A DNA stretch of 64,000 nt from an uncultured Poribacteria bacterium (GCA_951813565.1 OX638351.1:4320001-4384000); one strand, 5' to 3'. Counted from the first letter of the stretch, positions 2,494 to 57,071 are shown. The notes: generated by a model from the letters alone, not told the origin. A program made the numbers and translations.

Positions 2494-2805
2494 ACCTAAG
2501 TTGCTACGGACAAGATTTCAAGTTAGCAAACACTGCTTTTTACTGAAAAAACAAGGCTTTTTCGCTGATTCTTATGTTTTTTGTTCTAAAATCCAAATCA
2601 ACACCAAATGCGCGTTTGGCATTTGGCGGGGTTAGAAACCCCTCCTACAAGAGCATTTGCGAAATAGGTGGCATAATCTGTTAGATTGTGCTTGTGAAGG
2701 CGCAAACTGACAGTTTGCGCTACGAAATCTTGCAAAAATGCATAATTCTCTATAAAACATGTTGTCTGCATGTCTAAAATCTTGTCCGTAGCAACTTGGG
2801 TTATA
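2490..2805. mobile_element. MITE with ~29-bp TIR TATAACCYAAGTTGCTACGGACAAGATTT
   Basis: Near-perfect terminal inverted repeats, no ORF; same ends at 32542-33047. Confidence 0.8.
2594..2627 (+). repeat. 34-nt hairpin micro-insertion unit
   Basis: CAAATCAACACCAAATGCGCGTTTGGCATTTGGC; absent from the homologous MITE segment at ~32590-32605. Confidence 0.75.
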
Positions 2806-2971
2806 GTAATGTTTAAGCAAATATGATGCCAAGACTAAACGCGTGTGGTAGTTCTAATTCACGGAAATTATACAGAAATTGGTTAAAATATGAACACTGC
2901 TGTCAATAATTTGAACAATTTGGAATGTAGAGTATACACTAAAATCAAATGTTAGAAACAAAATGTCTTAT

Positions 2972-4057
2972 TTATCCTATTTTCACCGTCTGTCCCGTTT
3001 CCGCGGATTGCATCGCTGCATCATACACCTGCATAACTTTACGCATTTCTTCAGGTTTAACGACCAATTCCGCACCTTTGTTTAGCACATCCGCAATGTT
3101 CTGATAGTAAGATTTCCATGTGCCGCGCACACTCTCAATAACAAGTTCACGATTTTCGCCACCAGCCGCTGTCCAGACTTTCGCATAGTTCGCGGGGTCC
3201 TGTTCAGCTGCATCAATGTTACCATCACGCATTGGTCCTTCCTGTGGATCCAAACCGTATTTGATTAAACCGCCTTCATCACCCACAACATACCAACGCG
3301 GTTTTTCCGCTTTAGAAAGGTTGCCAATCTCAATTTGATACCGCACATCGTTCTGAAACTTAATGATAAGGTTCGCATAGTTACCAATATCGGTATCCCA
3401 TTTTGTATTGTAGTGAATATCACAAAAGACTGATTCAACGGGTGCCTCTCCAAATTGCAGTGCCTGATCCACGAAGTGTGCAGGCCAATCGTAAAGGATA
3501 CCCCCACTTTGACTTTTAACGCCTCGCCATCCACCGGGTGCCCCGTAACGCATAATCGCTACTTGAAAAAGGTAGGGTGTTCCCAACAAACCATCGGCGA
3601 TAACCTTTTTGACGGTGAGATAATCCCAATCCCATCGCCTGTTGTGAAAAACGCTGAGCATGACGTTGTTGCGTTCACTTGCAGCAATCATCGCATCTGC
3701 TTCAGCGGTGTTCATCGCCATGATTTTGTCTGTGACGAGGTTTTTTCCAGCATCCATCGCTTTAATAGCCAATTCTGCATGTGTATCGTGCGGTGTGGCT
3801 AAAACAACGAGGTCAACGTTATCATCAGCAATAACTTCATCTATTGTTTGATAGATTTGTGCTTTTGGATAAGCTTCGCGTGCGGTTTCACGACGTTCGT
3901 CATTCCGCGTTGCAATCGCATATAGATTTAACCCATCTGCTAAACCTACAAGATAGGAATGAAATGCCCGTCCGGCATATCCATAACCAATAACAGCGGT
4001 ATTTATCATATTATTTCTGCGTCGGCTTCCGAGGATAACCAACATTTCCCCTTTCAT
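2972..4057 (-). CDS. Gfo/Idh/MocA-family oxidoreductase (start possibly 4009)
   Basis: AVIGYGYAG Rossmann motif, ATPHDTH, DKIMA, VFHNRRWD, GGILYDW. Confidence 0.9.
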   Translation of the reverse strand: MKGEMLVILGSRRRNNMINTAVIGYGYAGRAFHSYLVGLADGLNLYAIATRNDERRETAREAYPKAQIYQTIDEVIADDNVDLVVLATPHDTHAELAIKAMDAGKNLVTDKIMAMNTAEADAMIAASERNNVMLSVFHNRRWDWDYLTVKKVIADGLLGTPYLFQVAIMRYGAPGGWRGVKSQSGGILYDWPAHFVDQALQFGEAPVESVFCDIHYNTKWDTDIGNYANLIIKFQNDVRYQIEIGNLSKAEKPRWYVVGDEGGLIKYGLDPQEGPMRDGNIDAAEQDPANYAKVWTAAGGENRELVIESVRGTWKSYYQNIADVLNKGAELVVKPEEMRKVMQVYDAAMQSAETGQTVKIG

Positions 4058-4848
4058 TTTTTATCGTTCAGTGTCCAATCGTAGCCTAAATAGTGAAACT
4101 TGACATCTTTCGCTAACACAAAATCCGCGTCTTCAGAAGGTAGGTAATCGGCGAGAAAATCTGGGACACCATCGTAGCCTTCCGTAAAATCTTTCTTATA
4201 CCATTTGAAGATTTTTGAAAGATAGACTCGGCGTTTCACTCTGTCTAATCGAACCTTCTCTGGATCGGTAACAAATTTGAGTGTAACAGCATCCAATTGC
4301 TCCTCAATTGTTTCAGGTAAATATACGATGTTTTCTAAAGGTGGGCAACTTTTTGACGCACATACGAGCGCAAAATGAACGCGCGGTTCAACAAATTCGG
4401 TGCGGATGATGTCGTGTTCAATTTGATTGAGGGAGTATTTTTCGCCTGCTACCTGAAACTTTAGTCGTGAGAAGAACCCATTGAACCACTTCACCTTTTT
4501 CACACTCTTTGTCGGATAGTGGTCAATAACGCCTTTAATGATAAGTGCATTGTATGTATTTATCCAAAAAGCCAATTGGGTGTTGTAAGGCATTTCTGCT
4601 GGTTTTGCCACTGCCAACAGATCCAAATACTTTTCCAATTTCTCTGGGTTCGCTTTGAGTTTGGCGTAATCAACTTTTCCCTTATCAACGTGTTCTTGCA
4701 ACACCTGATTAAACAGGTCATGAGAAAAAGTTGTATCGGTCGCGTCCTGCGGCGTGCGCGAATCTGCTTCTACACGGAAGTGATATTGAAACAGGACACT
4801 GAGTATAGATAATAGCAATAGGCAGCCAATTAGGATACGGTTTTTCAT
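4054..4848 (-). CDS. DUF547 domain-containing secreted protein
   Basis: VDYAKLK, LAFWINTYNA, SLNQIEHDIIR, PRVHFALVCASKSCPPL, YDWTLN. Confidence 0.9.
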   Translation of the reverse strand: MKNRILIGCLLLLSILSVLFQYHFRVEADSRTPQDATDTTFSHDLFNQVLQEHVDKGKVDYAKLKANPEKLEKYLDLLAVAKPAEMPYNTQLAFWINTYNALIIKGVIDHYPTKSVKKVKWFNGFFSRLKFQVAGEKYSLNQIEHDIIRTEFVEPRVHFALVCASKSCPPLENIVYLPETIEEQLDAVTLKFVTDPEKVRLDRVKRRVYLSKIFKWYKKDFTEGYDGVPDFLADYLPSEDADFVLAKDVKFHYLGYDWTLNDKK

Positions 4849-4919
4849 TGTGCTGTGTCCTCACTTTAGTACCTATTTTAGCATATCTTTATATTTTTTG
4901 CAGGGAAAACGGTTGGTAT

Positions 4920-5038
4920 CAGGGTTATTTAGTGCAAATGTTGGGTTTCGCTCCGCTCTACCCAATGGACGATACTATTATAAAGAATTAATGCATGTGA
5001 TAAAATGCGTCAGAAATATAGAAAACTAAATAACCCTG
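4920..5038. mobile_element. MITE with TIR CAGGGTTATTTAG and 8-bp target-site duplication
   Basis: CAGGGTTATTTAGT...ACTAAATAACCCTG flanked by GTTGGTAT at 4912-4919 and 5039-5046. Confidence 0.8.
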
Positions 5039-5115
5039 GTTGGTATCAGGGTTATTTATGGTGGATTTTAGAATTAATTGGGCATTATTCGCCTGTCAAT
5101 GTCCCATTTAACATA

Positions 5116-5459
5116 CTGTAATTAAATGGAATATCAACAGAAAAAAGAATGTCCGAGGCGACAAGTCATGGCGAATACCACACAGTGAGTGCCTAAAGAC
5201 GAATGCGCCAAATCAAGAAATCAACGGTATGAATCATGGCGAATCATGTAGAATACCAAAAGCGTATTCTACCAAGCGCATTCGTCTTTAGTCATTCACC
5301 GGGTCCGAATGCCCTTTGGCATTCCCGTATGGCATTCGCCATGATTCATACCGTTGATTTGGCGTATTCGCCCAAGTGCGCTTGGCGTTGATTTGGCAAT
5401 GAATTGCGCGACTACCAACGCGTTTTTGTTAATGAGAAGTTATTATTTAGAAATGGTAT
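5116..5459. repeat. Copy of the 19686-19823 MITE body with a ~240-bp nested hairpin stack inserted
   Basis: Flanks match 19716-19823; the insert lies between GAGGCG and CAATGAATTGCGCG. Confidence 0.7.
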
Positions 5460-5940
5460 TAGAAATCGCGCCTACCTTAAAAAGTTACCATTTGGTAACT
5501 TTTTTCATACCGTGGTAACTTTTTGAAATTCGGTATAAACCCAGTATCTGTATGGGTTTATAGGTGTTTTTCTCGTTTTCAATAAATTTCAATTTTTCAT
5601 TTCTCATCTGTATTGAAGATTCACGGTTTTTTCTTGTGTTCTGCAGGTTTATGGTCTGGGTATCTCTGTGTTTCGGGGATCGGTTTTGTTTTTTCATACT
5701 TATATTATGCCTCATAGTGGCGTGTGATTAGAAGTTTTTGTAGTTTTTGGAACAATATATATCCAATATATTTCCAATAAGTTTGCAGGAAAAGAGGAAA
5801 ATGCCTAAAGCAATTTATTTTCTACAATGAATTCACTGTAAAAACACAATTCATGAATAACTTATGCTCAAAGGTCAACAAAAATTTAAATTTAACGTTT
5901 TAAAGCGCATAACACACCAAAACAGGAGTTATCGCGTTGT

Positions 5941-8589
5941 ATGAAAGTCCGTTTACTTTTAATTTTGTTATTGTTGGCTATCACACCTTTACCAATTTTA
6001 GCACAAACAGGAAATGTTGAAGGCACTATCTATCAGCGAAGTACAGGGGAACCGCTTGAAGGCGCAGATGTTCACATCCTCGAAACAGATCAACACCAAA
6101 AAACTGATGCAAATGGAAAGTTTCGGTTCACCGGAATTTCTATAGGCACTTATACCCTATCCGTGTCTCACCCAAATTTCAACACACCTGAAAAGACGAT
6201 AATTGAAATGAGTGCAAACAAAACGATTCAAGGCAAAATCTACCTTGGACCAGCGTTTCAATTGGAAAAAGATACTGCAACAGGCGATATTGAAGGCACT
6301 GTCTATGATCGTGATACCGGTGCGTTATTAGCAGGCGCAGAAGTTAACATTGTGGAAACCGAGCAACGTCAGGAGACCAAAAGGGATGGAAAATTCCGAT
6401 TCACCGACATCACTCCTGGAACTTATACTATCTCAATAAAACATCTCGCTTTCGACACACCAACGGAAACCAAGGTGGAAATCAAAGCGGGCGGGACAAC
6501 CCAAGTCAAAATATATTTGGGACCGGTTTTCAAACTTGAAACAGTTATTGTAAAAGGAAAACGAATCCCACCAACTATCAGTCGAAAAGAGATACGCGGA
6601 TCAGAAATAAGACGTATCACAGGTACCGGTGGTGATGCCCTTAAAGCATTGACAACGCTTCCGAGCATAGGTATTCCTAACGATGTTTTTGGTATTCTCT
6701 ATATTCGTGGCAGTGAACCGGGGTCTACACGCTACTATTTTGATCGGGTACCGTTGGGATATCCGTTTCATTTTGGCGGGATTTTCTCAACAATTTATTC
6801 GGGTGCCATTGATGATATTCACATTTACGCGGGCGGCTACGGTGCGGAATTCGGCTTGGATTCGCAATCGGTTATTGATATACATTCACCAGATTGGATA
6901 GAGAAAAAGAGGGCTGGTGTTCTTGATATTAACATTTTATATCCGCAAGTTTACATTCAAACCAAGATTGGTCAGAAAGGGTATGCTTCCGCTGCTCTCC
7001 GACGCGACCTCTCTGGTCTCATCTTTAACCGCTTTTTTAACTTTACACTTCCGCGCTTTTCTGATTATCAACTCAAGTTTGTTTATGCATTCACTGATAA
7101 CCATACCTTAACACTCAACACTTTGGGTGCGACAGATCATTTTGATTTCTCTAATTTTATATTTGATGACACAGAGGAAGACAGTAACTTTTCTGCCTAT
7201 TACAAAAACGGGTTTGAAGGAGCAGGCATTCATCTGCGTTCAGAGTTTGCAGATAGATTCACATCTCACATGTCCCTAACGCGTTCTTTTAACTTCCTCA
7301 ATATGCAGTTTGGCACTCCTTTTGATACTGATGAAAGCCCAACGCGAGAAGGAGTATTCACAGATACAAAGACGAGGGTTCCTGCATATCAACTTCGGAC
7401 AGATATTGCCTATGAAATAACAGACAATTTCCAGTTTGAGCCAGGTTTTCTCTTATCCTACAGTCCAGCTGACAGTTCTTCTTATTCCACCCGCGCATTC
7501 GTGGACGAAGATTCTGATGATGGCGAACTGGTTGGGAGTAGGTCGCTTGACGAATTTAGTTACCCGTTTCGCCGTGCTGAGGGTTATCTGCAGGGACGGT
7601 ATGACCCGTTTTCATTTTTATCACTCGCGCTTGGCGTACGGTTCGACTATCTCAATATGACAAACGAACTCTCAACGCAGCCAAGAGCAAGCATGAGTGT
7701 CAAACTGCCTATCGGTACTGACGTCCGTTTCGCCTATGGTCAATACGAGCAAAGTCCTTTAGCATATCAGGTACTAAAGGATGGAGGAAATCGATCACTG
7801 AAATCCAGTGTAGCACAGCATTATATTATGGAATTGGAACACAACTTATCCCCGCATACAGAATTGAAGTTTGCCACCTATTATAAAGACTTGCAGAAAT
7901 TGGTTTCACGAAACATTGACTTTGATGCGCTTATTGCCTCCCTTGAAGATGCAACTGTAGCTGTTCCTTCTTTTGATTATTTCAACCAAGGCGACGGTTT
8001 CGTGAGTGGCGTAGAGGCTTTCTTGCGGCATCGAATCGAGGATAGGTTCTTCGGCTGGGTTTCATACGCATATACACATTCAGAACGGCGCAACCATCCC
8101 AACGATGCCTACAAACCTTATCTATTTGATCATAGCCATATTGTGAGCATTGTTGCAAACTATAACCTCAGTCATAATTCCGAACTCGGTATGAAATGGC
8201 AGTTTTTAAGCGGAACGTCTGCAGCACCAATAGGTGCACTGTTCCAAATCCAAGACCCTGTGACGCTTGGTATGAACAAGATTATCTCCGATAACCTGGG
8301 AGCTATTCTTGAGGCTGAATTACCTCCCTACCACCGATTAGATTTAAGGTGGAGCCGCAAGAGTCGGTATTTTGGTTTGCCTGTCACCGAATTTATAGAA
8401 ATATGGAATGCGTATTTCTTTTTGCACCAAAACAGTATGAGGTTAGGCGTTTCCAATCAGGTTTTAGATGTCATTGAAAATATTGCGCCTGAAGATTTGC
8501 CCGAAGATTTTGATCCAGCAACATTGGAGTCTATTAAAGTCCCACAAATCCCCTTTTTATTTACTGTCGGCGTTACCTATGAATTTTAG
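5941..8589 (+). CDS. TonB-dependent receptor with two N-terminal carboxypeptidase-regulatory-like domains
   Basis: Signal peptide; duplicated GxIEGTVY...LAGAEV...TYTxSI domain; plug LYIRGS; C-terminal YEF. Confidence 0.9.
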   Translation: MKVRLLLILLLLAITPLPILAQTGNVEGTIYQRSTGEPLEGADVHILETDQHQKTDANGKFRFTGISIGTYTLSVSHPNFNTPEKTIIEMSANKTIQGKIYLGPAFQLEKDTATGDIEGTVYDRDTGALLAGAEVNIVETEQRQETKRDGKFRFTDITPGTYTISIKHLAFDTPTETKVEIKAGGTTQVKIYLGPVFKLETVIVKGKRIPPTISRKEIRGSEIRRITGTGGDALKALTTLPSIGIPNDVFGILYIRGSEPGSTRYYFDRVPLGYPFHFGGIFSTIYSGAIDDIHIYAGGYGAEFGLDSQSVIDIHSPDWIEKKRAGVLDINILYPQVYIQTKIGQKGYASAALRRDLSGLIFNRFFNFTLPRFSDYQLKFVYAFTDNHTLTLNTLGATDHFDFSNFIFDDTEEDSNFSAYYKNGFEGAGIHLRSEFADRFTSHMSLTRSFNFLNMQFGTPFDTDESPTREGVFTDTKTRVPAYQLRTDIAYEITDNFQFEPGFLLSYSPADSSSYSTRAFVDEDSDDGELVGSRSLDEFSYPFRRAEGYLQGRYDPFSFLSLALGVRFDYLNMTNELSTQPRASMSVKLPIGTDVRFAYGQYEQSPLAYQVLKDGGNRSLKSSVAQHYIMELEHNLSPHTELKFATYYKDLQKLVSRNIDFDALIASLEDATVAVPSFDYFNQGDGFVSGVEAFLRHRIEDRFFGWVSYAYTHSERRNHPNDAYKPYLFDHSHIVSIVANYNLSHNSELGMKWQFLSGTSAAPIGALFQIQDPVTLGMNKIISDNLGAILEAELPPYHRLDLRWSRKSRYFGLPVTEFIEIWNAYFFLHQNSMRLGVSNQVLDVIENIAPEDLPEDFDPATLESIKVPQIPFLFTVGVTYEF

Positions 8590-8594
8590 TTTAG

Positions 8595-9959
8595 CACTCC
8601 CCGTCAAACCCCCTGCCTTTAGGTAGGGGATGTCCACGGCGAAAGTTTTGATTTAAAATATACTTTTCAATCTAATCACAATGTGGTATAATATATCATA
8701 CTATAGTGTAACTCTTGAAGTGATAAAAGACTATATTGAAGGTCAAAGTGGACAATGAGAAAATCTCACAAGTTCAAACTTCAAAATCAATCTAACACAA
8801 TCAAACTCGGCAATATGCTTGATGATATGTGGCAAATCCATGTGCATATCATGCGTTTGGCACGTAGGTATTATCGCATGTTCGGCAAAAATTTGTCTGC
8901 GTATCGTCTGAAGGCACACGTCACACAACTTAAAAAGACAACTAAACCGCATTGGGCAGCCTTGCCGAGTCAAGTTGTGCAAGACGTTGTCCTACGTTAT
9001 GGTAAATCACAAGACGCATTTTTCCAAAATATAGCAAGCCGCAAATCAGGTAAAACAACGCGTAAAGTGGGTAGACCGAAAATCAAACCGCGCCACAAAT
9101 ACAACTCCATGACCTTCACACAAGCGGGCTACAAACTTGAAGATAATCGTATCAAAATCAACTGTATAGATACATGGTTTTCCTACCACAAACACCGTGA
9201 AATCAAAGGAACTATCAAGACAATCACAATCAAACGCGATAAGTGCGGTGACTATTGGATATGCTTTTCGTGCGAGAATGTTGACGATCCCGAACCCAAA
9301 CCCAAGACAGGTAAGAGCGCAGGATTTGATTACGGAAACAAAACATTCCTCACAAGCGACGAAGGGGACACAATAGAATCCCCGCAGTTTTTCAAACAAT
9401 CACTCAACACGTTGCGATCTCTCAACAAAGCACTCAGTCGTAAAGTCAAAGGTTCTAACAACTATTATCGTGCGTGCCGTGCTTTAGCAAGACAACACAG
9501 AAAAGTTGCCCGACAAAGAGAAGATTGGCAATGGAAACTTGCCTCAAAACTTTGTGTAGAGTTTGACACACTCATTTTGGAAACGCTGAACCTTGACGGT
9601 ATGAAACGATTATGGGGACGTAAAGTTTCTGACCATTCTTTCTACCAGTTTCTTCAGATATTGGAACAGAAGTGTGCGAAGCACGGCAAAAAACTTGTGC
9701 AAATCTCGCAATGGATAGCAACAACAAAACCTTGTAGTGATTGTGGATACCATAACGAAGAACTCTCTCTCGCAGATAGACAGTGGACATGCCCCGAATG
9801 TGGGTCACACCACGACAGAGACATCAATGCTGCTATCAATATCAAACGGGCAGGCTTGGCTGCCTAAAGTGGAGCGACAATAAGACGGTGGACGCTAAGC
9901 GAAAACCGCAGTCGCGAGGAAGCACAAGCCCCTACCTTTAGGTAGTAGGTACCTATGAC
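8595..9959 (+). mobile_element. Non-autonomous IS605-family (tnpB-only) element, copy 1
   Basis: TTAG|CACTCCCCGTCAAAC + left hairpin; right hairpin CCCCTACCTTTAGGTAG then ...CCTATGAC; no TSD. Confidence 0.95.
8755..9867 (+). CDS. tnpB: TnpB RNA-guided endonuclease
   Basis: RuvC D (GFDYG), E (ETLNL), D (DRDINAA); Zn finger CSDCG/CPECG. Confidence 0.95.
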   Translation: MRKSHKFKLQNQSNTIKLGNMLDDMWQIHVHIMRLARRYYRMFGKNLSAYRLKAHVTQLKKTTKPHWAALPSQVVQDVVLRYGKSQDAFFQNIASRKSGKTTRKVGRPKIKPRHKYNSMTFTQAGYKLEDNRIKINCIDTWFSYHKHREIKGTIKTITIKRDKCGDYWICFSCENVDDPEPKPKTGKSAGFDYGNKTFLTSDEGDTIESPQFFKQSLNTLRSLNKALSRKVKGSNNYYRACRALARQHRKVARQREDWQWKLASKLCVEFDTLILETLNLDGMKRLWGRKVSDHSFYQFLQILEQKCAKHGKKLVQISQWIATTKPCSDCGYHNEELSLADRQWTCPECGSHHDRDINAAINIKRAGLAA

Positions 9960-9975
9960 CAATCTTGAGACAATA
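9868..9975 (+). ncRNA. Predicted omegaRNA/reRNA 3' scaffold plus guide (5' end probably inside tnpB)
   Basis: GCGAC...CGGT-loop-ACCG...GTCGC stems conserved across copies while the loop differs; the guide would be the flank CAATCTTGAGACAATA. Confidence 0.65.
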
Positions 9976-10147
9976 TGTTGTAAAATTAACGTGCGTTTGA
10001 TAATAATATCCAAATGTATATGTCCGTTGGATAGAGCGAAGCGAAACCGAACAATTCAACCGTTGGGTGTAAAAATAGTTGGGTTTCAGGTTGTTCTACC
10101 CAATCTACGATATTTTTCTATCACCTATCCGCATAGGAGTTATTAAT

Positions 10148-14930: not shown

Positions 14931-14965
14931 ATGGTTTTCTTCGGAGTAGAAACCTGAAATATATC

Positions 14966-17032: not shown

Positions 17033-17255
17033 GAGGCGCAGCATGCCACACGGGGAATGCCATAAGGCATTCAGACCCGGTGAATGACTAAAGACGAATG
17101 CGCTTGGTAGAATACGCTTTTGGTATTCTACATGATTCGCCATGATTCATACCGTTGATTTCTTGATTTGGCGCATGCTGCGTTGATTTGGCAATGAATT
17201 GCGCGACTACGAACAGATAATTTGAAAATGAGAAGTTATTTTTCAGAAATGGTAT
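17033..17255. repeat. Partial MITE with a nested hairpin stack (reverse complement of part of 5195-5335)
   Basis: GAGGCG[stack]CAATGAATTGCGCGACTAC...AGAAATGGTAT. Confidence 0.7.
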
Positions 17256-17269
17256 AACTTAAAAAGAAA

Positions 17270-19361: not shown

Positions 19362-19685
19362 AAATAAATTTGGAAAATGGAAATTGAGTAATTAGGAAAA
19401 AATATAGAACGCTCATATAAAACCCACATTCCGCAGTTGTTTAATCAGAATTTAATATTTATAGGACAAACCCGTGTCACGAAAGGATCCGTACCGGATA
19501 ATAGAGATTTGATGTTGTGAATTAAGATTCTATTTTCCACTTGTCTTCTTCTCTGGTTCACTTGAAATTGCTTGCTCGATGTAGGTGCCGCGTAGGTTTG
19601 AAAAATAAATATCGAAAATCGGAAATTAGAAGTGCGGAATGTAGGTTCTAATTCAAAAGGGAAATTCATTTTTAGAATTGGTATA

Positions 19686-19823
19686 ATACCAATTCTAAAA
19701 TACAATGTCTCATTCTGTAATTTAATGGAATATCAACCGAAGAAAGAATGCTAAGAGGCGCAATGAATTGCGCGACTACGAACGCGTTTTTGTTAATGAG
19801 AAGTTATTATTTAGAAATGGTAT
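19686..19823. mobile_element. MITE with TIR ATACCAWTTCTAAA
   Basis: ATACCAATTCTAAA...TTTAGAAATGGTAT; related copies end at 5459 and ~17255. Confidence 0.7.
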
Positions 19824-22267: not shown

Positions 22268-22571
22268 TATATAAACGACTTGTGCCAGTTAACATTTTGT
22301 TTTGTTGGTTTTCACATATATTTGCATTTGTGCTATATACATATCGTTCCTACCAAATCAACGCCAAATGCGCGTGTAGCATTTGTCGGGACTAAAGAGT
22401 GCTCGTCCAATCATTTTCTATAAACATATCGTCCCTACCAAATCAACGTCAAATGCGCTTATGGCATTTGTCGGGACTGAAGAACATATAAATATATGAT
22501 AATGACTTACAAACATTTTCTTTTGTGAAATAAAGTTCTACAAATGGTTATTTAGCACAACTCGTTATATA
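22268..22571. mobile_element. MITE with TIR TATA(A)ACGASTTGTGC carrying two REP+34-nt units
   Basis: TATATAAACGACTTGTGC...GCACAACTCGTTATATA; units at 22354-22387 and 22439-22472. Confidence 0.65.
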
Positions 22572-32482: not shown

Positions 32483-32541
32483 ACAGTTCGGTTATTAGGT
32501 GCAATAAACACACGTAAAATTCAGTAACGCTTTTATCCTAT

Positions 32542-33047
32542 TATAACCCAAGTTGCTACCTATATCGCGAATGCTCTTGTAGGAGGGGTTTCTAACCCCG
32601 ATTTAAAAAAGAAAGCATAAGAATTAGCTGGAAATCCTTGTTTTTCAGTAAAAAGCAATGTCTACAAGCTTGAAATCTTGTCCGTAGCAACTTAGGTTAT
32701 TATAGTGGATTTTACAATTAACTGGACATTGCCACTCGGACGGACAAGTGTTCTACAGTTTTAAAGTCGCGACCTGCGAATCAACGCCAAATGCGCTTTT
32801 GGCATTTGGCGGGTCGCTACTACAGGAAGAGGCGCAATGAATTGCGCTTGGTGTTCTCCGCGTTTTCCGCGATTCAGACAGAAAAAAGATCAAAAGTACC
32901 GAATTAAAAAATTAATCTTCATTTAGTTTGTGCACTATTAGACGCAAACTAAAAGTTTACGCTACGATATTTCGCGTATAATGCAAATTTCTTGATCAAA
33001 AATGGTGTCTACAGATCTAAAATCTTGTCCGTAGCAACTTAGGTTAT
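32542..33047. mobile_element. Composite MITE cluster (TATAACCYAAGTTGCTAC family plus TATAGTGGAT end, REPs and a 34-nt unit at 32777-32810)
   Basis: One left TIR at 32542 and two right TIRs ending 32700 and 33047; internal sequence homologous to 2380-2805. Confidence 0.75.
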
Positions 33048-33089
33048 TATGTAGGTGTAATCCCGCTACCGAGCAACAAGGAACAGTTT

Positions 33090-47425: not shown

Positions 47426-47482
47426 TCTATCCTCTCATAATCCAAATCTGTGATTGAAAATGAATAGAAAACACATAACAGT

Positions 47483-48684: not shown

Positions 48685-48696
48685 TTCGCCACTCTG

Positions 48697-48747
48697 AAAG
48701 CAATTGACAAGTACAAACGTGAAAATGTATAATATCAACAAGGCAAT
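48697..48747 (+). promoter_or_regulatory. Repeated promoter module, copy 1
   Basis: AAAGCAATTGACAAGTACA..GAAAATGTATAATATCAACAAGGCAAT (TTGACA-18-TATAAT). Confidence 0.75.
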
Positions 48748-48782
48748 TAAATTGAGATATAATCTGAAAGGAGTACAATTGG

Positions 48783-49106
48783 ATGATCCAAATTTCTGAA
48801 CCGATAACTCTTGAAAAACTGCTGCCATTAATTCAAAAATTGCCTAAAGTGGAACGCGATCAACTACGGAAATCTCTTGAAGCTGAGTCACAACTTGATG
48901 CCGCAATCCTGCTATATCAAGAAGGTAAAGTGACACTCGGAAGAGCCGCTGAATTAGCGGGAATCCACCGTTTCGAGTTGGAAGCGGTTTTAAAGGAGAA
49001 AGGTATATCTAAAATTGCCGAAGTTGATTCAGATGAAAATTTGGAAGCGGGAATTGCGGTCATCAGGGAATTGCACAAATCAAACATCAGCACAGAGGAA
49101 CAATAA
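48783..49106 (+). CDS. UPF0175-family putative antitoxin
   Basis: AILLYQEGKVTLGRAAELAGI..L..KGI. Confidence 0.85.
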   Translation: MIQISEPITLEKLLPLIQKLPKVERDQLRKSLEAESQLDAAILLYQEGKVTLGRAAELAGIHRFELEAVLKEKGISKIAEVDSDENLEAGIAVIRELHKSNISTEEQ

Positions 49107-49108
49107 CT

Positions 49109-49599
49109 TTGGTCTTTGTTGATACTGATGTTCTTTCAATTTTCGCCAAGATTCAGAGGTTATCTCTCTTGTTTGCGGTTTTTCATCAAGACCAGCTTAA
49201 CATTGCTACTGCTGTCGAAAATGAAATCAAAATCGCGAGCTCAAAAGGGTTCACTTCGCGCATGAAATTATAGAACTAAATACACAAGGTCAAATTCGCA
49301 CACATCGCACGACGAGTGCATATCAAAAGTTTATGCGTTCCTTACCACAAACACTTGATGCAGGGGAACGCGAATCTATGGCACTTTGTAAACGCCTAAA
49401 AGCTATTTTGGTTAGCAACGAACGGCGCGTAATGCACCATTGCGGTGCAAACCGTATTGATTGTATTAACTTAGCTCAGATTTTACGCACACTCTGGAAA
49501 TTAAACATCTTGACCCAAACTGATGTTCGGCAAGTTATAACCGAGATTGAAACAAAAGATAATCTAAAATTTCGAACAACTGAACCAATTTTCAAATGA
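49109..49599 (+). pseudogene. PIN-domain (DUF3368-like) toxin, frameshifted
   Basis: LVFVDTDVLSIFAK from 49109; frame break near 49250; LDAGERESMAL..LVSNERR downstream. Confidence 0.75.
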
Positions 49600-49643
49600 A
49601 TCCTTACAGTGAAGACTAACTCATCGAACGACCTGCCATTGCG
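49596..49643 (+). pseudogene. Relic of an hsdR 5' end
   Basis: MNPYSED*LIERPAIA versus HsdR start MRNPYSENQLVEQPAIE. Confidence 0.65.
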
Positions 49644-49791
49644 CAAGACGCTGACAACACCAAAATTTCAGAGTCGCAATTTTGCTCAAAACCAGATAAT
49701 CCCGCTCCCAGACTAATCGGATAGGCATTTTTCGCTACCTGCTATTTCGCGTTTTACTCTGAAAACTCTGAAATTTGGCAGTATAAAACCA

Positions 49792-49842
49792 AAAGCAATT
49801 GACAAGTACAACCGTGAAAATGTATAATATCAACAAGGCAAT
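49792..49842 (+). promoter_or_regulatory. Repeated promoter module, copy 2
   Basis: Differs from 48697-48747 at about one position. Confidence 0.75.
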
Positions 49843-49855
49843 GAGGAGGACACCA

Positions 49856-50146
49856 ATGCTCAAAATCAACCCGCAATATCTTGTTGATGACAAAGGTGAG
49901 AAAACCGCTGCGCTCCTGACAATCAAAGAATTCCAACTGCTCATGCAGCGTCTTGAAGACTTAGAAGATACTTTAGAGATGGACGCTGCGGTCGAAACCG
50001 ATCAAGCAGAACTTATGGAATACGCTGAGGCACAACTTCGCAAGTTGTGTGACTCACGCAAGTTGAATTGGGATAAGATGAGCGAGGCGGATCGTGAAAA
50101 TTTTGTTAATGACCTCATCCATGAGGATCGCGAATGCAGCCGGTAG
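49856..50146 (+). CDS. Putative antitoxin (possibly chimeric)
   Basis: GAGGAGG RBS; PQYLVDDKGEKTAALLTIKEF..LEDLED antitoxin-like N-terminus; overlaps the PIN gene. Confidence 0.7.
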   Translation: MLKINPQYLVDDKGEKTAALLTIKEFQLLMQRLEDLEDTLEMDAAVETDQAELMEYAEAQLRKLCDSRKLNWDKMSEADRENFVNDLIHEDRECSR

Positions 50147-50541
50147 TTGTTTATGATACAAATATTCTATTTTCCGCTACTGGTTGGAAAGGAACTCCTT
50201 TTCATTGTCTTGAATTAGCACGACATGGCAGCATTAAAGGCATAACCTGCATAGAAATTTTAGATGAATTAGCAGAAAAGCTCTCTACCAAGCTCAATTT
50301 CTCGTCAACCCAAACAAGAAAAAGGATTGAATACCTCAGCAGTTTTCTGCGGCTGGTTACGATTAACAACACCCTCAAGATTGTTGATGCGGATCCGGAC
50401 GATGACAAAGTTATTGAATGCGCGGTTGTAGGTTCGGCAACCCACATTGTGACTGGCGATTCGCATTTGTTAAAACTTGGAAACTATCAGAATATACAGA
50501 TCGTAACAGCTGCAGATTTCTACGCTCAGTTTTCACGATAA
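50134..50541 (+). CDS. PIN-domain toxin (PIN_3 type)
   Basis: VVYDTNIL, ILDEL, DPDDDKVIECAV, IVTGDSHLL. Confidence 0.9.
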   Translation: MQPVVVYDTNILFSATGWKGTPFHCLELARHGSIKGITCIEILDELAEKLSTKLNFSSTQTRKRIEYLSSFLRLVTINNTLKIVDADPDDDKVIECAVVGSATHIVTGDSHLLKLGNYQNIQIVTAADFYAQFSR

Positions 50542-50664
50542 CATATCAATATAACCGATTGGCGAATACGCGTTGGGATATACCGAATTCTATATCAAAT
50601 AGACGACCAACATCGGCGTGTCAACATTTACCGAATCAAACACCGTCGAGATGCCTATCGTTAG
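50542..50664 (+). pseudogene. C-terminal fragment of a RelE/ParE toxin
   Basis: Manual translation ITDWRIRVGIYRILYQIDDQHRRVNIYRIKHRRDAYR*. Confidence 0.8.
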
Positions 50665-53600
50665 ATATAAGACTATTCATCATGCGAAACCCCTACAGTG
50701 AAAACCAACTCGTAGAACAACCCGCAATTGAACTGCTCAAAGAAATAGGATGGCAAACGCAGGACTGTGCTAACGAATTTGAGAACGACAGCAAAATTCG
50801 GACTGGCAGAGCAGCAAAATCTGAAGTTGTGCTAACTGATCGGCTCCGCGCGGCGTTAGTACGGCTCAACCATGATGCACCTGAAGATGTTATTGATTCC
50901 GCTATTGAAGAATTAACGCAATCTCGCAAAGTAATGACCCCTGTTGAAGCGAATCGGGAAATCTACAATCTCCTGAAAGACGGTGTTAAAATAACTGACC
51001 CCGACCCGAACACGCAAGAAGAAACCGTTTCAGTAATTAAAGTAATTGACTGGGAGAATCCAGAAAATAACGACTTCTTCGCAGCGTCACAATTCTGGAT
51101 CACTGGCGAAATGTATACCAGACGTCCAGACCTGATAGGATTCGTCAACGGGATCCCCTTACTCTTAATGGAGTTCAAGGGGATTGGCGAAAACCTATAC
51201 GCAGCCTACATTGACAACCTCCGAGACTACAAAGACACCATCCCCCACCTTTTTTGGTACAACGCCTTAATTATTGTATCCAACGGTTCAAAGAGCCGCG
51301 TCGGGAGTTTTACTGCCGAATGGGAACACTTCACCGAATGGAAACGGATTGAAAGTGAAGATGAACAGCAGAGAGTCTCACTGGAAACACTTCTACGAGG
51401 TGTCTGTGAACCAAAACGATTATTAGATATCGTTGAAAATTTCACGCTGTTTATGGAGATCCAAGGCGGGACAATTAAACTGATCTCAAAAAATCATCAA
51501 TACTTGGGCGTAAACAACGCAATTAAGGCATTGCAGGAAAACAAATCCAATCTTGGAAAACTTGGTGTATTCTGGCATACACAAGGAAGTGGTAAAAGTA
51601 TCTCAATGATCTTCTTTGCACAGAAAGTCCTCAGAAAAATGCGGGGACACTGGACATTCGTTGTCGTAACAGACCGTAAAGAATTGGACAACCAAATTTA
51701 CAAAACCTTCGCGAGTGCCAGCGGTGTCTTAACACAGCAGGAGGTGCATGCAGAAAACATCAAAGACCTCCGTCAACTGCTCAGTGAAGATCACCGTTAT
51801 GTTTTCACGCTTATCCATAAATTTCAGACAGCAGATAATGAACCACATCCAGTCCTCTCTGATCGTGCAGACATTATTGTGATTACCGATGAAGCGCACC
51901 GTAGTCAATACGACACATTGGCGTTAAACATGCGTACCGCGCTCCCGAATGCTGCATATATTGCGTTTACAGGTACGCCTCTAATGGTAGGCGAAGAAAA
52001 GACACGTGAAGTGTTTGGAGACGAAGTGTCAGTATACAATTTTAAGCAATCCGTAGAGGATAAAGCAACCGTCCCGCTCTACTATGAAAATCGCGTTCCC
52101 AGATTGCAATTGACAAATGAGGATTTAAATACCGACCTTGAACAGATTCTTGAGCAGGCGGAATTGGATGAGGCACAAGAAGCAAGACTGGAACGTGAGT
52201 TTGCACGCGAATATCATCTCATCACGCGGGATGAACGTTTAGAAAAAGTTGCAGAAGACATCGTTTCACATTTTATCGGCAGGGGCTATCGGGGGAAGGC
52301 GATGGTCATCTCTATTGATAAACCCACAGCAGTTAAGGTGTACGGTAAAGCACAGAAGTACTGGAGACATAAACTTGAAACTCTGAGATCAGAATTAAAC
52401 AGTGGTGTTGCAAGAGACAGAGAGGAACCACTTGAGGCGTTAATTCAGTTTATGGAAGAAACCGATATGGCCGTGGTGGTGTCACAATCACAAAACGAAA
52501 TTGACGATCTGAGAAGGAGAGGCGTTGACATCAGCCCACACCGACAACGCATGCAAAGTGAGGATTTGGACACCAAATTCAAAAACCCAGATGATCCTTT
52601 CCGTATTGTTTTCCTCTGTGCAATGTGGACCACAGGTTTTGATGTCCCTTCATGTTCAACAATTTATCTTGACAAACCGCAACGCAACCATACCTTAATG
52701 CAGACAATTGCAAGAGCTAATCGTGTGTTTAAAGATAAAGTCAACGGGTTAATCGTTGACTACATAGGCGTTTTTCGTAACCTTGAAAAAGCACTTGCTA
52801 TTTATGCTACAGGATCTAACGGGAACGGAAGTAATCCAATTGCGGATAAGTCAGAACTTATTGAGGAACTCAGAGAAGCAATTACAGAAATTTCTGATTT
52901 TTGTAGTAACCTTGGAATTGACTTTTCCAGAATCCAGGTGACTGATAGCCTGCAGCAAATCCAATTAATTGACGAAGCAGTAAATCTTATTCTGGTCAAC
53001 GATCAAACCAAAAATGACTACCTCGAACAAGCAAACAAAATCTATAAATTATTCAAAGCAATTCTCCCTGACACTGCAGCGAATGAGTTCATCGGGATAT
53101 GTTCATTGCTAAACATTATCGCTCGGAAAATAAAGAATCTCCGTGAACCCGTTGACATCTCCGAAGTCGAAAATGCAGTAGAAGAATTACTGGACCGCTC
53201 AATCGCCCCTGAAGGTTACATCATCAGTGCTGGTCAAAATGCCTATGGCTCAGAACAAATTGACTTAAGCCAAATTGACTTCGAACAACTGGCTGAACAA
53301 TTCAACACTGAACACAAACGCACTCAAGCTGAAAAACTCAAGGGAGCGATAAATAGAAAACTATCAGAGATGATTCAACTCAACAAAAGTCGCATGGATC
53401 TTCAAGAGAAATTTGAACAGATGATTGCGGAGTATAACGAAGGTCATATTAGCGAAGACCAACATCTTGAGGAAATTTTTGATTTTCTGAATGAACTTAA
53501 TCAAGAGGAAGAACGTGCTGAATCAGAAGAACTCTCGGAGGAGGAATTAGCGGTATTTGATCTTCTAACTAAAGCTGAACCACGCTTGACTGTGCCGCAG

Positions 53601-53801
53601 CGAGAAGAAGTGAAAACTGCTGTGAAGGGATTACTTGAAACTCTCAAACAAGAGAATTTGGTTTTAGATTGGCGTAAACAGCAACAATTGTGTGCCCAAA
53701 CTGAAATGGCTGTTCAAACAATTGTACTGCCACCGGAAATTCGGGCCACTCTCTAAGACAAGATTATGGTATAATATCCATCTACTTGAAAGGAGTATCC
53801 G

Positions 53802-54092
53802 ATGGCGAAACGAAAACGAAGAAACTTCACTCCCGAGTTTAAAGCCGAAGTTGTTCTTGAGGCACTGAGCGGTCAAAGTTCCCAAGCAGAAGTGTGTCGG
53901 CGACATAGCCTCAGCGATGAACAACTTTCAAAGTGGAAGCGACAGCTTCTTGAAAATGCGGCGACCCTCTTTGAACCCGCTGATAAACAGTCTGATGCCT
54001 CTGCGGATCGGATCGCCCAACTTGAGCAACTCGTTGGGCGGTTGACCCTGGCACTTGACATCCAAAAAAAAGCCTCAACTTACTTGAGTTGA
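53802..54092 (+). CDS. IS3 OrfA (HTH); -1 frameshift site A8G at ~54065-54073
   Basis: RRNFTPEFKAEVV..QLSKWKRQ; CAAAAAAAAG. Confidence 0.92.
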   Translation: MAKRKRRNFTPEFKAEVVLEALSGQSSQAEVCRRHSLSDEQLSKWKRQLLENAATLFEPADKQSDASADRIAQLEQLVGRLTLALDIQKKASTYLS

Positions 54093-54928
54093 CCCCGATG
54101 GAGCAGCGAGAAATGGTTGAAGCATTACGGATAGACTTTTCGGTTCGGCAGATATGTGAGACGCTCGGTTTCAACCGAAGCAATCTCTATTATCACCCCA
54201 AGCAGGACCCGTGTGAAGCGGGCCTCCGGGATGAAATAGAGAAGTTATCTTTGCTATATCCAACATACGGATATAGACGTATCACACAGTTGTTAGTGCG
54301 TGGCGGATACACCATCGGGTATAAGCGTGTTGCCCGATTGATGAAATCCGCCAACCTCTCGGTTTCTGTCAAACGTGTCTGTCAAACCACGACATCCGTT
54401 GCGGGTGTGCGTCCCTGGGGTAATCGCCTTGAAAACCTTGATGTCTCCCGATGTGATCAGGTCTGGGTAGGCGATATTACCTACGTCCGTCTCAAAGGAC
54501 ACTTCATCTATGTTTGTCTGCTCATGGATGTCTTCACTCGCATGATCAGGGGGTGGCATATCAGTCGACACTTGACGCAATCTCTGGCGTTGAAACCCTT
54601 AGAGACAGCATTATGTCAAAGTGTTCCAGAGATCCATCATTCTGATCAAGGCGTTCAGTATCTTTCAGATGCGTATATCTCACTGCTTAGGTATCATGGG
54701 ATAGAGATTTCAGTCGCCCGAAGAGGGTGTCCTTGGGAGAACGGATATGCTGAAAGACTTATCCGCACGCTCAAGGAAGAAGAAGTTCATCTCAACGCCT
54801 ATGAGAACATCCACGAAGCGAGAGCCCGCATTGGGCATTTTATTACGCAAGTGTATAATCACAAACGCCCTCATTCAGCGTTAGGGTATTTGACACCTGT
54901 GGAATTTGAGCAAAAAAACTTGTCTTAA
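54089..54928 (+). CDS. IS3 OrfB DDE transposase/integrase core
   Basis: YGYRRI, WVGDITY, HHSDQGVQY, ENGYAER..TLKEE, YNHKRPHSALGY. Confidence 0.95.
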   Translation: MTPMEQREMVEALRIDFSVRQICETLGFNRSNLYYHPKQDPCEAGLRDEIEKLSLLYPTYGYRRITQLLVRGGYTIGYKRVARLMKSANLSVSVKRVCQTTTSVAGVRPWGNRLENLDVSRCDQVWVGDITYVRLKGHFIYVCLLMDVFTRMIRGWHISRHLTQSLALKPLETALCQSVPEIHHSDQGVQYLSDAYISLLRYHGIEISVARRGCPWENGYAERLIRTLKEEEVHLNAYENIHEARARIGHFITQVYNHKRPHSALGYLTPVEFEQKNLS

Positions 54929-55160
54929 CTTTGCTAAATTTTGGTCTGAATAAACGGTAGCACTTCAAATTCTTGATCAAGGACTGCCAGAAACCTATAC
55001 GCAAGACATGTTTGAGAAAAAATGGAAGGCAGTATATCAACATGTTTTTGAATCCTATTATGGAGAGGGGAAGAGTGCCTATACTGAAATCACTAATATT
55101 CAAGAACCAGACAATATTACGACTGGCAGATCTGCAGTTACATTATAAAGGTAAGTTTTT

Positions 55161-55934
55161 ATGCTTCTCAAAGACCGTATTAGCATTGTAACAGGTGGTA
55201 GTTCCGGTATCGGACGCGGAATCGCCCTTGAATTCGCTCGCGAAGGCGCGAGTGTTGTAATCGCTGACAAACAGGAATCTCCACTGCAAGGTAAGTATCA
55301 CGAGAAGGATGCCACAACACCAACAGTCCAAGAAATAGAGAAATTAGGCGGGCGGGGAATATTTATCAAAACCGATGTTTCCGATGAATCACAGGTCACC
55401 CGGATGATCCAGCAAACTGTTGAACATTTTGGTGGACTTGATATTCTTGTCAATAACGCTGGTATTCATATTCCCGGTGGATCACAAGATATTTCTATTG
55501 CCGACTGGGACAAAGTTGTTGGTGTAAACTTGCGCGGCGTTTTTATGACAACGAAACTTGCTATTCCGCACCTGAAAAAGTCGAAATTCGGACGGATTAT
55601 CCAAATCGCTTCTGTCCATGCCTACGGTGGCGGTGCGGGACCAGCCTACGCCTCCGCGAAAGCTGCTGTTGTCAACATGGTTCGGGATACCGCTTTAGAG
55701 GTTGGTAAATTCGGAATAACTGTAAACGCTATCTGTCCCGGCTATATTGAGACTGCAATTCAGGATTACCTAACGCCAGAACAAATTGAGGAATCGTTAG
55801 AAAAGACACCCTTGCAACGTTTAGGTCTACCTAAAGACATCGGACGCGCAGCAATTTTCTTCGCGTCGGACGATGCTGCATGGGTCACTGGCACATCTCT
55901 CCTTGTTGATGGCGGTGCCAGTGCCAAGGCATAG
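55161..55934 (+). CDS. SDR-family oxidoreductase
   Basis: TGGSSGIG, NNAG, YASAK, NAICPG. Confidence 0.93.
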   Translation: MLLKDRISIVTGGSSGIGRGIALEFAREGASVVIADKQESPLQGKYHEKDATTPTVQEIEKLGGRGIFIKTDVSDESQVTRMIQQTVEHFGGLDILVNNAGIHIPGGSQDISIADWDKVVGVNLRGVFMTTKLAIPHLKKSKFGRIIQIASVHAYGGGAGPAYASAKAAVVNMVRDTALEVGKFGITVNAICPGYIETAIQDYLTPEQIEESLEKTPLQRLGLPKDIGRAAIFFASDDAAWVTGTSLLVDGGASAKA

Positions 55935-55986
55935 TAAATACTATGATGGATTTTCTTGTGGGAGGAGTTTCCAACCCGATTTTCCA

Positions 55987-56535
55987 ATGCCAACCAAAAC
56001 ACACACCACAGCAGTTGTCCTCATTCCGCCAGAGGCGATACAGCCGCCTATCCAAGCAATCCGTAGTATCCATGACCGCAATTTCGAGCGATGGATGCCG
56101 CACATAACACTGCTTTACCCATTTGCACCGCAACAAGATTTTCAAGATATTATCCCAGCACTTGCAAAAGTTGCACAACAGACAACACCGTTTTCTGTAA
56201 TACTTGCATCTTTCAATGCTTTTCGCCACAAGAAATCATGCACACTTTTCCTCGTGCCCGAACCCAAAAACGAAATCGTACAACTACATAGCACACTTAC
56301 TGAATATCTTCCAGACTACGACGACACGGCACGATTTACTGGTGGATTCAACCCACATCTCTCAGTCGGACAATTCCAGCACCAATCTCTCAATGACGCA
56401 CAACAGCAATTACAAAATGAGTGGAAACCAATTCAGTTTGAGGTCGAATCTCTATCACTTATCTATAGATCAAAAGAAACAAACGATAAATTTGTTGTTT
56501 CTGAAAGCTTTCTCTTTCAGAAAAGGAGTGAATAA
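55987..56535 (+). CDS. 2H phosphoesterase / 2'-5' RNA ligase family protein
   Basis: Two HxT/S motifs: PHITL and PHLSV. Confidence 0.85.
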   Translation: MPTKTHTTAVVLIPPEAIQPPIQAIRSIHDRNFERWMPHITLLYPFAPQQDFQDIIPALAKVAQQTTPFSVILASFNAFRHKKSCTLFLVPEPKNEIVQLHSTLTEYLPDYDDTARFTGGFNPHLSVGQFQHQSLNDAQQQLQNEWKPIQFEVESLSLIYRSKETNDKFVVSESFLFQKRSE

Positions 56536-57071
56536 TGAACACAAAATCTATCATATCGTCCATCTTAACCTTAGTTTTATAGTAAAAACCATAATTATTT
56601 ACACACTACAAATCAACGCTAAATGCGCCTATGGCATTCGTCCAAATCAACGCTGAATACACCTATGGTATTCAGCGGGTTCGGTTTCCCGCCAAATACG
56701 CCAAACCAACGCCAAATGCGCGTATGGCATTTGGCGTATTTGGCGTTGATTCACCGAACCGGTGTTTATTCAGTCTCATAGTTCGGCAGAATGCGCTTGG
56801 TAGAATGCGCGCATGGCATTCTGCATGATTCTTCTGCATTGGTTAGGAAACCGCATCTACCAGGGAGTGTGCACATATTTTCGGATTTTACTATAAAAAC
56901 GCAGAAACGCTTGATCCCACTGCTATTCGGGATGCCTTGATAAAAGTCACTGACTACCAAGGTGCATCCACCATTTCACGTTTTGATGAAAATCGACACC
57001 CGGTCAAAAGTCTATTGCTCCACACTATTCGCGATGAACAGATAGTCCTCTACAAAGCCGTTGATCCATAG
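56535..57071 (+). pseudogene. Remnant of a branched-chain-amino-acid-type ABC substrate-binding protein; middle replaced by a MITE
   Basis: RBS + MNTKSIISSILTLVL before the MITE; KNAETLDPTAIRDAL..YQGASTISRFDENRHPVKS..* after it. Confidence 0.7.
56578..56895. mobile_element. MITE with TATAGTAAAA TIRs filled with tandem and nested 34-nt hairpin units
   Basis: TATAGTAAAAACCATAATTATTTACACAC...GTGTGCACATATTTTCGGATTTTACTATA; units at 56609-56642, 56643-56676, 56702-56735. Confidence 0.78.

Follow-up and report, generated by a model that had tools for sequence, protein, structure and literature searches.

How can a hairpin of some 34 nucleotides (nt) multiply in a bacterial genome, inside other repeats and inside copies of itself? 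The question is raised by a 64,000-nt stretch of DNA (the window; G000:C1:4320001-4384000) from a Candidatus Poribacteria genome, G000, which comprises 5.43 Mb with 43% GC in one contig. An initial annotation of the window had described seven 34-nt units, two of them in tandem and one inside an inverted copy. All seven were recovered, with the unit at 56643 abutting 56642 and the one at 56702-56735 lying within the inverted copy. Beyond these, we found three minus-strand copies with leaders at 5395, 17190, and 56753, two of which (5160-5395 and 17038-17190) are split by nested inserts. The unit is a non-autonomous hairpin micro-element of the class of repetitive extragenic palindromes (REPs), composed of a variable dinucleotide, the tag AATCAAC, and a 9-12-bp stem-loop. 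It multiplies by precise copying, without target duplication, into sites of the form (C/G)^G(GG), where ^ marks the junction. The earlier proposal of a discrete, non-coding, structure-conserving, and secondarily inserted element held up on the evidence of at least ten host contexts, a gain at an orthologous site, a fixed nesting point, and arrays of mixed composition.

The layout of the unit can be given as two variable nucleotides, the invariant tag AATCAAC, a 9-nt arm, a loop of 7 or 8 nt (mostly GCGYRTG or GCTTTTTG), and the complementary arm, with the CAAC of the tag directly abutting the stem. The unit measures 34 nt in 302 copies and 35 nt in 127 copies of G000. This agrees with the hairpin layout proposed in the initial annotation, with small corrections: the leader reads CGAATCAAC at 32777 and CAAACCAAC at 56702, the first two nucleotides vary, and several 3' arms carry one mismatch (GCATTTGTC). 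Allowing up to three mismatches, the 18-mer of leader and arm has ten matches in the window compared to 0.12 expected, a number reached in none of 100 shuffles, and CAAATCAAC occurs 649 times genome-wide compared to ~58 expected occurrences. The 16-nt pattern of tag and 5' arm, AATCAACRYNNNATRC, is present in 583 copies in G000. These matches were defined by tag and 5' arm alone, and the 3' arm was searched afterwards; at normal spacing, it was perfect in 250 matches, had one mismatch in 138 and two in 24, and had three or more in 171. The main stems are GCCAAATGC (133 copies), GCAGCATGC (112), GCTGAATGC (38), ACCGAATGC (23), GCCAAATAC (15), and GCTGAATAC (14).

The compensatory stem GCTGAATAC/GTATTCAGC that had been noted at 56652-56676 is matched by covariation in the family as a whole: six of nine stem pairs change on both sides in an alignment of 49 units, and control partners slid by 1-3 columns pair in just 24-35% of cells. 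Because the aligned units were picked for perfect stems, their 98.9% pairing reflects selection and only the covariation counts as evidence. Predicted DNA folding gives the expected hairpins, with a z-score of -6.8 for the composite at 56605-56750. As a short imperfect palindrome capable of forming a hairpin, the unit has the size (20-40 bp) and fold of a REP, and it also resembles REPs in its high copy number and its location mostly outside genes. Only 15 of 369 units lie in stop-free frames of at least 150 codons, compared to 282 of 369 control positions 3 kb away. A neighbour in the same orientation accompanies 154 of these 369 units and an inverted one, at up to 150 nt, accompanies 41, while 190 are solitary; ten of the 41 are overlapping double-leader palindromes. 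The tag additionally heads ~300 or more hairpins with other stems in G000. We found ~240 tag-bearing hairpins of a 'type II' (GG-TAT/TCC-GAATGCC...GGCATTC-CCC), 42 copies with a GCTATGAATGCC stem, and ~30 more complex ones; double-leader palindromes (tag-hairpin-reverse tag) and flipped loops are also present. A search of the window against Rfam 15 at gathering score gave no match.

One indication of mobility comes from paralogous filled and empty sites, which differ by exactly the 34/35-nt unit without target duplication, as had been claimed from the window. Precise pairs of this kind were found in at least ten unrelated host contexts with the same unit boundaries. Genome-wide, GTGGGAG^GGGTT is filled 83 times and empty 51 times, and the corresponding numbers are 9 and 96 for GTAGGAG^GGGTT, 84 and 128 for ATTCATTGC^GCCTC, and 9 and 46 for TGTAGGGC^GGGGTC. 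Two of the sites had already been pointed out as restorable. One is AAATC^GGGGTT, whose empty homologue at ~32590-32605 of the window is real and which is filled in 42 and empty in 133 cases; the other is GTCCCTAC^GGGAC, with 28 filled and 21 empty sites. The hosts are GTAG/GTGG-tagged REPs in REPIN-like doublets, other small hairpins, and miniature inverted-repeat transposable elements (MITEs). Insertion at (C/G)^G(GG) is hence free of duplication and takes place beside a short specific sequence.

Copies of the unit are targets as well. Among the 171 arms without a nearby partner, 113 have their partner 10-400 nt downstream. In 95 cases the loop is interrupted by another leader, always after the loop nucleotides 'GC' (GC^G), and 82 cases show both the interruption and the distant partner arm. 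The residual loop reads GTGTG, GTATG, or GTCCG in 77 of these; removal of the insert therefore restores a normal loop. We further identified 85 directly abutting pairs, in which the stems differ in 64 cases and are identical in 17, so the arrays are not the result of simple slippage. The second unit of an abutting pair starts with CA in every case, which fits arrays that grow as new units insert between the final unit and the GGG behind it. The sites used are the feet and loops of other hairpin repeats, the 3' end of arrays before GGG, and loop position 2 of the units themselves. In the genomes of this uncultivated phylum of sponge symbionts, selfish hairpin DNA is thus stacked on three or more levels, namely the unit in REPs/REPINs in MITEs.

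Could the unit instead have been carried along passively? In that case a few ancient insertions would have been spread by host REPINs and MITEs or by tandem duplication, and empty sites would have arisen by precise deletion or recombination. Most copies do lie within other repeats, and unique 14-mers flank both sides in just 86 of 549 detector matches, a set that includes chance hairpins. Identical composite contexts recur, such as TGTGGGAG^unit^CAAATCAA with 46 copies, and tandem arrays of host plus unit with an 86-nt period exist. Passive spread does not account for the same boundaries in at least ten unrelated hosts, for the mixed stems of 64 of the 85 abutting pairs, for 82 nests at one loop position, or for the gain at a unique site inside a conserved gene described below. 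Moreover, precise deletion of 34 nt without flanking repeats would itself need a specific mechanism. We therefore regard this explanation as very unlikely.

The units of the window and their hosts are as follows.

2594..2627, plus strand: type-I unit (CAAATCAAC with the ACCAAATGC/GCATTTGGC hairpin) at AAATC^GGGG; the host is the foot of a GTAG-type REP-A hairpin in a MITE of ~170 bp, and the paralogous empty site AAATCGGGGTT is found 133 times.
5160..5395, minus strand: cluster of leader-bearing hairpins nested on several levels, inserted at CATTGC^GCCTC of the small hairpin repeat GCGCAATTCATTGCGCCTC.
17038..17190, minus strand: type-I unit (GCAGCATGC/GCATGCTGC) at a CATTGC^GCCTC host site, its loop split after 'GC' by ~125 nt of further leader-bearing hairpins.
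22354..22387, plus strand: type-I unit inserted into a GTTCCTAC^GGGAC hairpin loop, first copy of a tandem repeat of ~85 nt.
22439..22472, plus strand: type-I unit at GTCCCTAC^GGGAC of the second host copy in this tandem.
32560..32610, minus strand: empty REP-A/MITE homologue (GTAGGAGGGGTTTCTAACCCC^GATTT) of the filled 2594 site.
32777..32810, plus strand: type-I unit with leader CGAATCAAC, located in a REP-B hairpin loop (GTCGCGACCTG^...^GGGTCGC).
56609..56642 and 56643..56676, plus strand: two abutting units with different stems (GCTAAATGC, then GCTGAATAC/GTATTCAGC).
56691..56753, minus strand: inverted unit (leader TGAATCAAC at 56753-56745, stem GCCAAATAC/GTATTTGGC).
56702-56735, plus strand: unit with leader CAAACCAAC within the loop region of the inverted unit at 56691..56753.

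The GCGCAATTCATTGCGCCTC type of host that carries the 5160..5395 cluster has 128 empty and 84 filled sites genome-wide. The unit at 32777 lies in an intergenic region of ~540 bp upstream of mfd, which is filled with nested repeats in G000. In relatives, the region upstream of mfd measures 8-24 bp in seven of 11 fetched loci and 188-662 bp in G012, G048, and G052. Two further repeat families are located upstream of mfd, at 32540-32710 (~170 bp) and at 32850-33050 (~150-200 bp); copies of the former, a MITE, are 97-100% identical within G000, and those of relatives are 80-88% identical. The tandem host at window positions 22300-22500 is a 52-nt hairpin-containing repeat with a unit in each copy and a period of 86 nt, and this host array is also found in another Poribacteria species (L110); there, the end copy of the array is empty and the subsequent copies in view are filled. 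The cluster at 56.6 kb is flanked by a type I restriction HsdR gene (50418-53756) and a MAD3-like AAA ATPase gene (57220-58410), MAD3 being a methylation-associated defence protein, and these surroundings may represent a defence island.

In order to follow individual insertions, we compared orthologous sites between species. The minus-strand unit at G000:C1:1292617-1292650 (L193:718-751) is a 33-nt insertion relative to G012, G052, G014, and G051, and is thus absent from all four aligned relatives. It adds 11 in-frame codons after codon 3 of a conserved PstA-like ABC permease gene, whose product starts with MKR-PNQRQMRVWHL-SGLIFQ in G000 compared to MKRSGLIFQ in the sister species. This copy has one extra 5' base, and its last two bases are common with the target. 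The insertion also brings an in-frame ATG, which could serve as a new start codon. The unit at G000:3310561, on the other hand, occupies the same site in G012, G048, G014, and G052, that is, in five species including G000; G051 was not alignable there. At this site, the stem of G014 has a GC pair changed to AT in a compensatory manner, and the loop is enlarged in three species. A comparison of the orthologous unit L195:712-745 with L204-L207 showed a G014 loop inverted with respect to the tag and, in three species, loops larger by ~16-20 nt, a pattern suggestive of flipped hairpins and of secondary insertions into the loop. The intergenic regions at two further unique sites have diverged too far to give exact junctions, and one of these sites shows a replaced TT and no clean insertion. 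A unit can persist at an orthologous site, and the age of the element is at least that of the split of two genera.

As to the taxonomic range, AATCAACRYNNNATRC is present in all 40 genomes of the genus with 5 to 583 copies, the highest number being that of G000, whereas the reversed control gives 0-4; copy number therefore differs by two orders of magnitude between genomes. The covariance-model scan proposed in the initial annotation was carried out with a model built from 49 units and matched all 37 genomes of genus g1, 51 of 57 in g9, and the one genome of g11, together 89 of the 99 genomes of the family. There was no match in the two genomes each of g10 and g12, nor in 51 genomes of eight other families of the phylum. 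The unit family thus occurs in three genera of one family. In public genomes, the exact 18-mer was found in at least 108 stretches, and 78 of the 80 matches listed belong to Candidatus Poribacteria bacterium. A single Bacteroidales match has no hairpin and none of four matches on viral contigs has a hairpin behind it, so that these are attributed to chance.

The unit is not an assembly artefact, a concern raised at the outset, because every one of the 40 genomes of the genus contains it, as do contigs from independent public runs. Nine public runs from five studies contain the stretch of the window, and short-read contigs from four were compared. These contigs stop at each repeat (2768, 4961-5483, 8594-9960, 17060-17228, 19450-19796, and 22296), and none bridges a unit site; read joints of high depth at 2590-2627 derive from paralogous empty copies. 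The layering of repeats breaks short-read assemblies at exactly these sites. Separately, contigs of two independent runs (X1 and X7) join 8594 to 9960 and skip 8595-9959, which contains an open reading frame on the plus strand (8755-9867). The skipped part has a 60-fold higher depth and looks like a multi-copy insertion sequence (IS) that is absent at this site in other samples.

What, then, moves the unit? Tag and hairpin are conserved while the stem drifts by compensatory change, from which we infer a trans-acting protein that recognises the folded single strand. The mover may be a single-strand-specific HUH/Y1 enzyme of the type of REP-associated tyrosine transposases (RAYTs) or IS200-IS605 transposases; we lean towards this explanation, although it falls somewhat short of being probable. 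We rank it first because no class other than the Y1/HUH enzymes is known to act on hairpins of REP size (Di Nocera et al., PMC3733652). For RAYTs, binding and cleavage of REPs have been reported (PMC4690160). Such an enzyme would cut and join hairpin DNA at replication forks. The cumulative GC skew of G000 is weak and shows no two-arm pattern.

Two groups of observations, on the genes and on the junctions, weigh against a Y1/HUH enzyme. The first is that a link between gene and repeat is missing. G000 has ten Y1_Tnp matches, including three RAYT-like genes. Five of the ten belong to a 1.73-kb IS605-like element, present in four full copies plus y4 (~550 bp at the left end only) with 87-95% identity, and the ends of this element carry neither the AATCAAC tag nor the unit hairpin. 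The element comprises a Y1 tnpA and, behind it, a second gene, with a CCCC..TGCCTTTAGGTAGGGG hairpin at the left end and ...CCTATGAC as the last sequence on the right; as four copies have the same upstream flank, the element may target one repeat. One copy lies in the window (1-~895; tnpA reading frame 301-756, minus strand) and runs off the window start. Four other Y1 genes lie elsewhere on G000:C1.

242023-242496: y9, RAYT-like.
5070803-5071249: y7, RAYT-like.
3549545-3550015: y8, RAYT-like, with an internal TAG.
3098010-3098354: y5.

Each of these genes is flanked by its own, different inverted REPs, and the families flanking y5/y7/y8/y9 are GTAGGAGCGAGCTCCAGCTCGCGAC, GGCGAGGTTTCCTAACCTCGCC, GTAGGAGGGGTTTnnAACCCC, and GCCCCAGCGGGGC. 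Apart from the unit, G000 thus possesses several REP/REPIN systems. Upstream of y9, a unit is located within the REP-B head that flanks this gene, and in L049 a unit likewise sits in the RAYT's own flanking REP. No Y1 gene is flanked by a pair of units among the ten matches of G000 and 19 Y1 loci of five relatives; units are nearby in five of these 19 loci, never as a flanking pair.

The distribution of the enzymes across genomes points in the same direction. Strong matches to the y9-type RAYT (E at most 1e-40) are found in 20 of the 40 genomes and track copy number loosely. Genomes without it still hold 60-228 copies (228 in G055, 114 in G014), and G016 has the gene and just 11 units. G000 lacks a 202-aa E. 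coli-like RAYT that relatives possess. Family members without a match to the covariance model carry Y1 matches nonetheless (34 in G062, 5 in G086, 2 each in G093 and G119, and 0 in G063). Furthermore, the tag is neither GTAG nor CGTC. The HUH/RAYT link put forward in the initial annotation was thus not borne out by the flanks of Y1 genes or by their distribution, and nothing points to the reverse transcriptase that had been offered with it. In the region G055:C21:2410637-2484169, we noticed ~18 model matches on one strand within 75 kb around a y5-type Y1 gene, including a locus (L043) with seven units at 185-240-nt spacing.

Since the distribution of the unit follows that of none of the Y1 classes, an enzyme of a class hitherto not connected with such repeats has to be considered. 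It could be a nuclease/ligase, a recombinase, or a reverse transcriptase with a small RNA/DNA template, and the target base would set the dinucleotide at integration. In agreement with this, no gene recurs between inverted units in the 83 gaps of 300-4000 bp that separate islands, and the strict genus-wide junction rule described next is unexplained by known REP/IS200 chemistry. This search gave no candidate gene, the DUF559 nuclease was not found in G000, and the mixed-stem arrays argue against a single internal template such as that of a telomerase-like writer. Overall, we consider an enzyme of this kind quite unlikely.

The second group of observations concerns the junctions. The claim that most insertions fall at C^G was correct in its second half, as the three bases downstream of non-tandem units are G in 75%, 62%, and 61% of copies; upstream it needs to be extended, because roughly half of the copies have C at -1 and roughly a third have G. 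When distinct downstream 8-mers are considered, 53 of 61 begin with G and 35 with GGG. The first two nucleotides of the unit depend on the base at -1 and not on the stem subfamily. After C, they are CA in 204 of 217 copies of G000. After G (n=136), they are TG in 81, CG in 30, GG in 24, CC in one, and CA in none. Counted by distinct upstream 6-mers, 22 of 27 contexts ending in C are followed by CA, and 21 of 28 ending in G are followed by TG. Across 40 genomes, the junctions comprise 1821 C^CA and 959 G^TG, compared to 12 G^CA and 20 C^TG. Cut-and-paste with fixed boundaries does not predict this rule. An alternative phase, in which all insertions would fall at N^CGGG, was discarded because the empty site that it requires, GTGGGACGGGTT, has no copies.

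In addition, irregular junctions exist. The canonical head of GTAG REPs is YTG-TA-GGAGCGA, and GTAGGAGCGA occurs 271 times. At 13 distinct REP-B sites with five different stems, the head instead reads YTG^TGAATCAAC...^GGGAGCGA, with the host 'TA' lost and one G gained. Similar replacements are CCATAGG to CCA^TA...^GGG, replaced hairpin loops, and an orthologous site at which GTMGGTTGGGTAGAG became GTAGG-unit-GGAGTAGAG. These irregular junctions look like copying that includes donor flanks.

Such observations would be expected from polymerase copy-choice, in the form of template switching mediated by microhomology or of short-patch gene conversion, neither of which needs a dedicated transposase. 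A nascent strand, having stalled at a hairpin's G-run foot, would re-anneal to the GGG behind a unit elsewhere, copy the unit with at least one upstream base, and return. The inherited donor flank predicts the junction rule, including its presence across distinct contexts, and the nearly universal G/GGG after the unit matches the proposed annealing site. The irregular events fit as well, since host bases are lost between two microhomologies and an extra G appears (CTG-TA-GGAGCGA to YTG^TG...C^GGGAGCGA at the 13 sites), and the CCATAGG event, the loop replacements, and the GTMGGTTGGGTAGAG site can be read in the same manner. So can the in-frame permease copy with its extra 5' base and two shared terminal bases. 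Nevertheless, a microhomology of 1-3 nt cannot explain why one 34-nt segment was chosen hundreds of times, and the invariant 7-nt tag over many hairpin subfamilies in three genera and the single position of all 95 loop insertions remain unaccounted for. A preference based on 1-nt microhomology should also leak more than 32 exceptions in 2812 junctions, and most junctions are exact. We thus regard copy-choice as possible, if doubtful. The junction rule and the flank-inclusive junctions keep alive both this explanation and that of another enzyme, next to the Y1/HUH enzyme that we tentatively prefer.

A bolder view, which we consider rather unlikely, is that the unit is the complete substrate of an undescribed integration chemistry. 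It would be a one-hairpin element aimed at the G-run foot or the loop of hairpins, including its own, with arrays built from one end. Its first dinucleotide would be coupled to the last base of the target (C with CA, G with TG), either as an 'address code' or through copying that always takes one donor flank base. If this were true, the smallest mobile DNA that targets itself and has a readable junction code would be found in Poribacteria, together with an enzyme able to insert short hairpin cassettes at programmable single-strand sites.

Whichever mechanism applies, the movement of REP-sized repeats is a long-standing question, and to our knowledge a complete RAYT-driven transposition of a REP has not been demonstrated. 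The unit family offers readable natural experiments on this question, comprising hundreds of exact filled/empty pairs, one nesting position, directional array growth, and a strict junction rule in 40 genomes, each of which constrains the mechanism. As the permease gene illustrates, units can also add peptide segments to proteins.

How does the unit compare with known systems? It shares with miniature derivatives of IS200/IS605 the lack of terminal inverted repeats and of target duplication, the oriented insertion beside a short sequence, and a hairpin with a short linker to the element end (bottom strand CCC^hairpin+GTTGATTNN^). It differs from them in having one hairpin and no pair of left and right ends; the ends of the resident IS605-like element are unrelated, and G062, with 34 IS-type Y1 matches, is without units. 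Very small repeats (<40 nt) were reportedly judged mobile in Nostocaceae by Elhai et al. in 2008, from filled/empty comparisons and insertion in other repeats; these small dispersed repeats (SDRs), SDR1-8, are said to measure 21-27 nt. Insertion of SDR5 of Nostocaceae into HIP1 palindromes has been described (PMC5861425). Compared to the SDRs, the unit belongs to another phylum, has another sequence, a length of 34-35 nt, and a leader-plus-hairpin anatomy, and it is an analogue at most. Rickettsia palindromic elements, as covered in the REP review (PMC3733652), are similar in being palindromes in frame inside functional genes, as are the 11 codons in the PstA-like permease gene; they are longer and mainly intragenic, in contrast to ~4% of units in long open frames.

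The closest counterparts are REPs and REPINs. Compared to the REPIN-RAYT system (Bertels and Rainey 2011, PMC3116915), the unit is likewise a non-autonomous hairpin with vertical persistence and varying copy number in genomes with RAYT-like genes. However, units are mostly singlets or direct arrays and not inverted doublets, and no RAYT is flanked by them. REPs as described by Di Nocera et al. 2013 (PMC3733652) measure 20-40 bp, form GTAG and CGTC superfamilies, and lie in some cases in other palindromes or in frame in genes; some of them (CGTC) have no dedicated transposase. The unit resembles them in size, imperfect palindrome, copy number, extragenic location, and a short tag at the 5' foot. 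It falls outside both superfamilies owing to its tag AATCAAC, and the GTAG REPs of G000 are its targets. Unlike these REPs, it builds direct tandem arrays in which subfamilies are mixed, inserts into its own loop at a single position, and follows a strict junction rule. The initial annotation, which called the element far smaller than typical MITEs and did not recognise it as a described family, was thus overstated in part. Elements of this size in palindromes and genes were already in print, while the titles and abstract openings of the papers listed in literature searches on Poribacteria contained no description of the unit family or of REP-like repeats. Overall, the unit represents a new family of the already known REP/small-dispersed-repeat kind of very small mobile DNA, and what is new is its sharply defined behaviour together with one junction rule that no current model explains.

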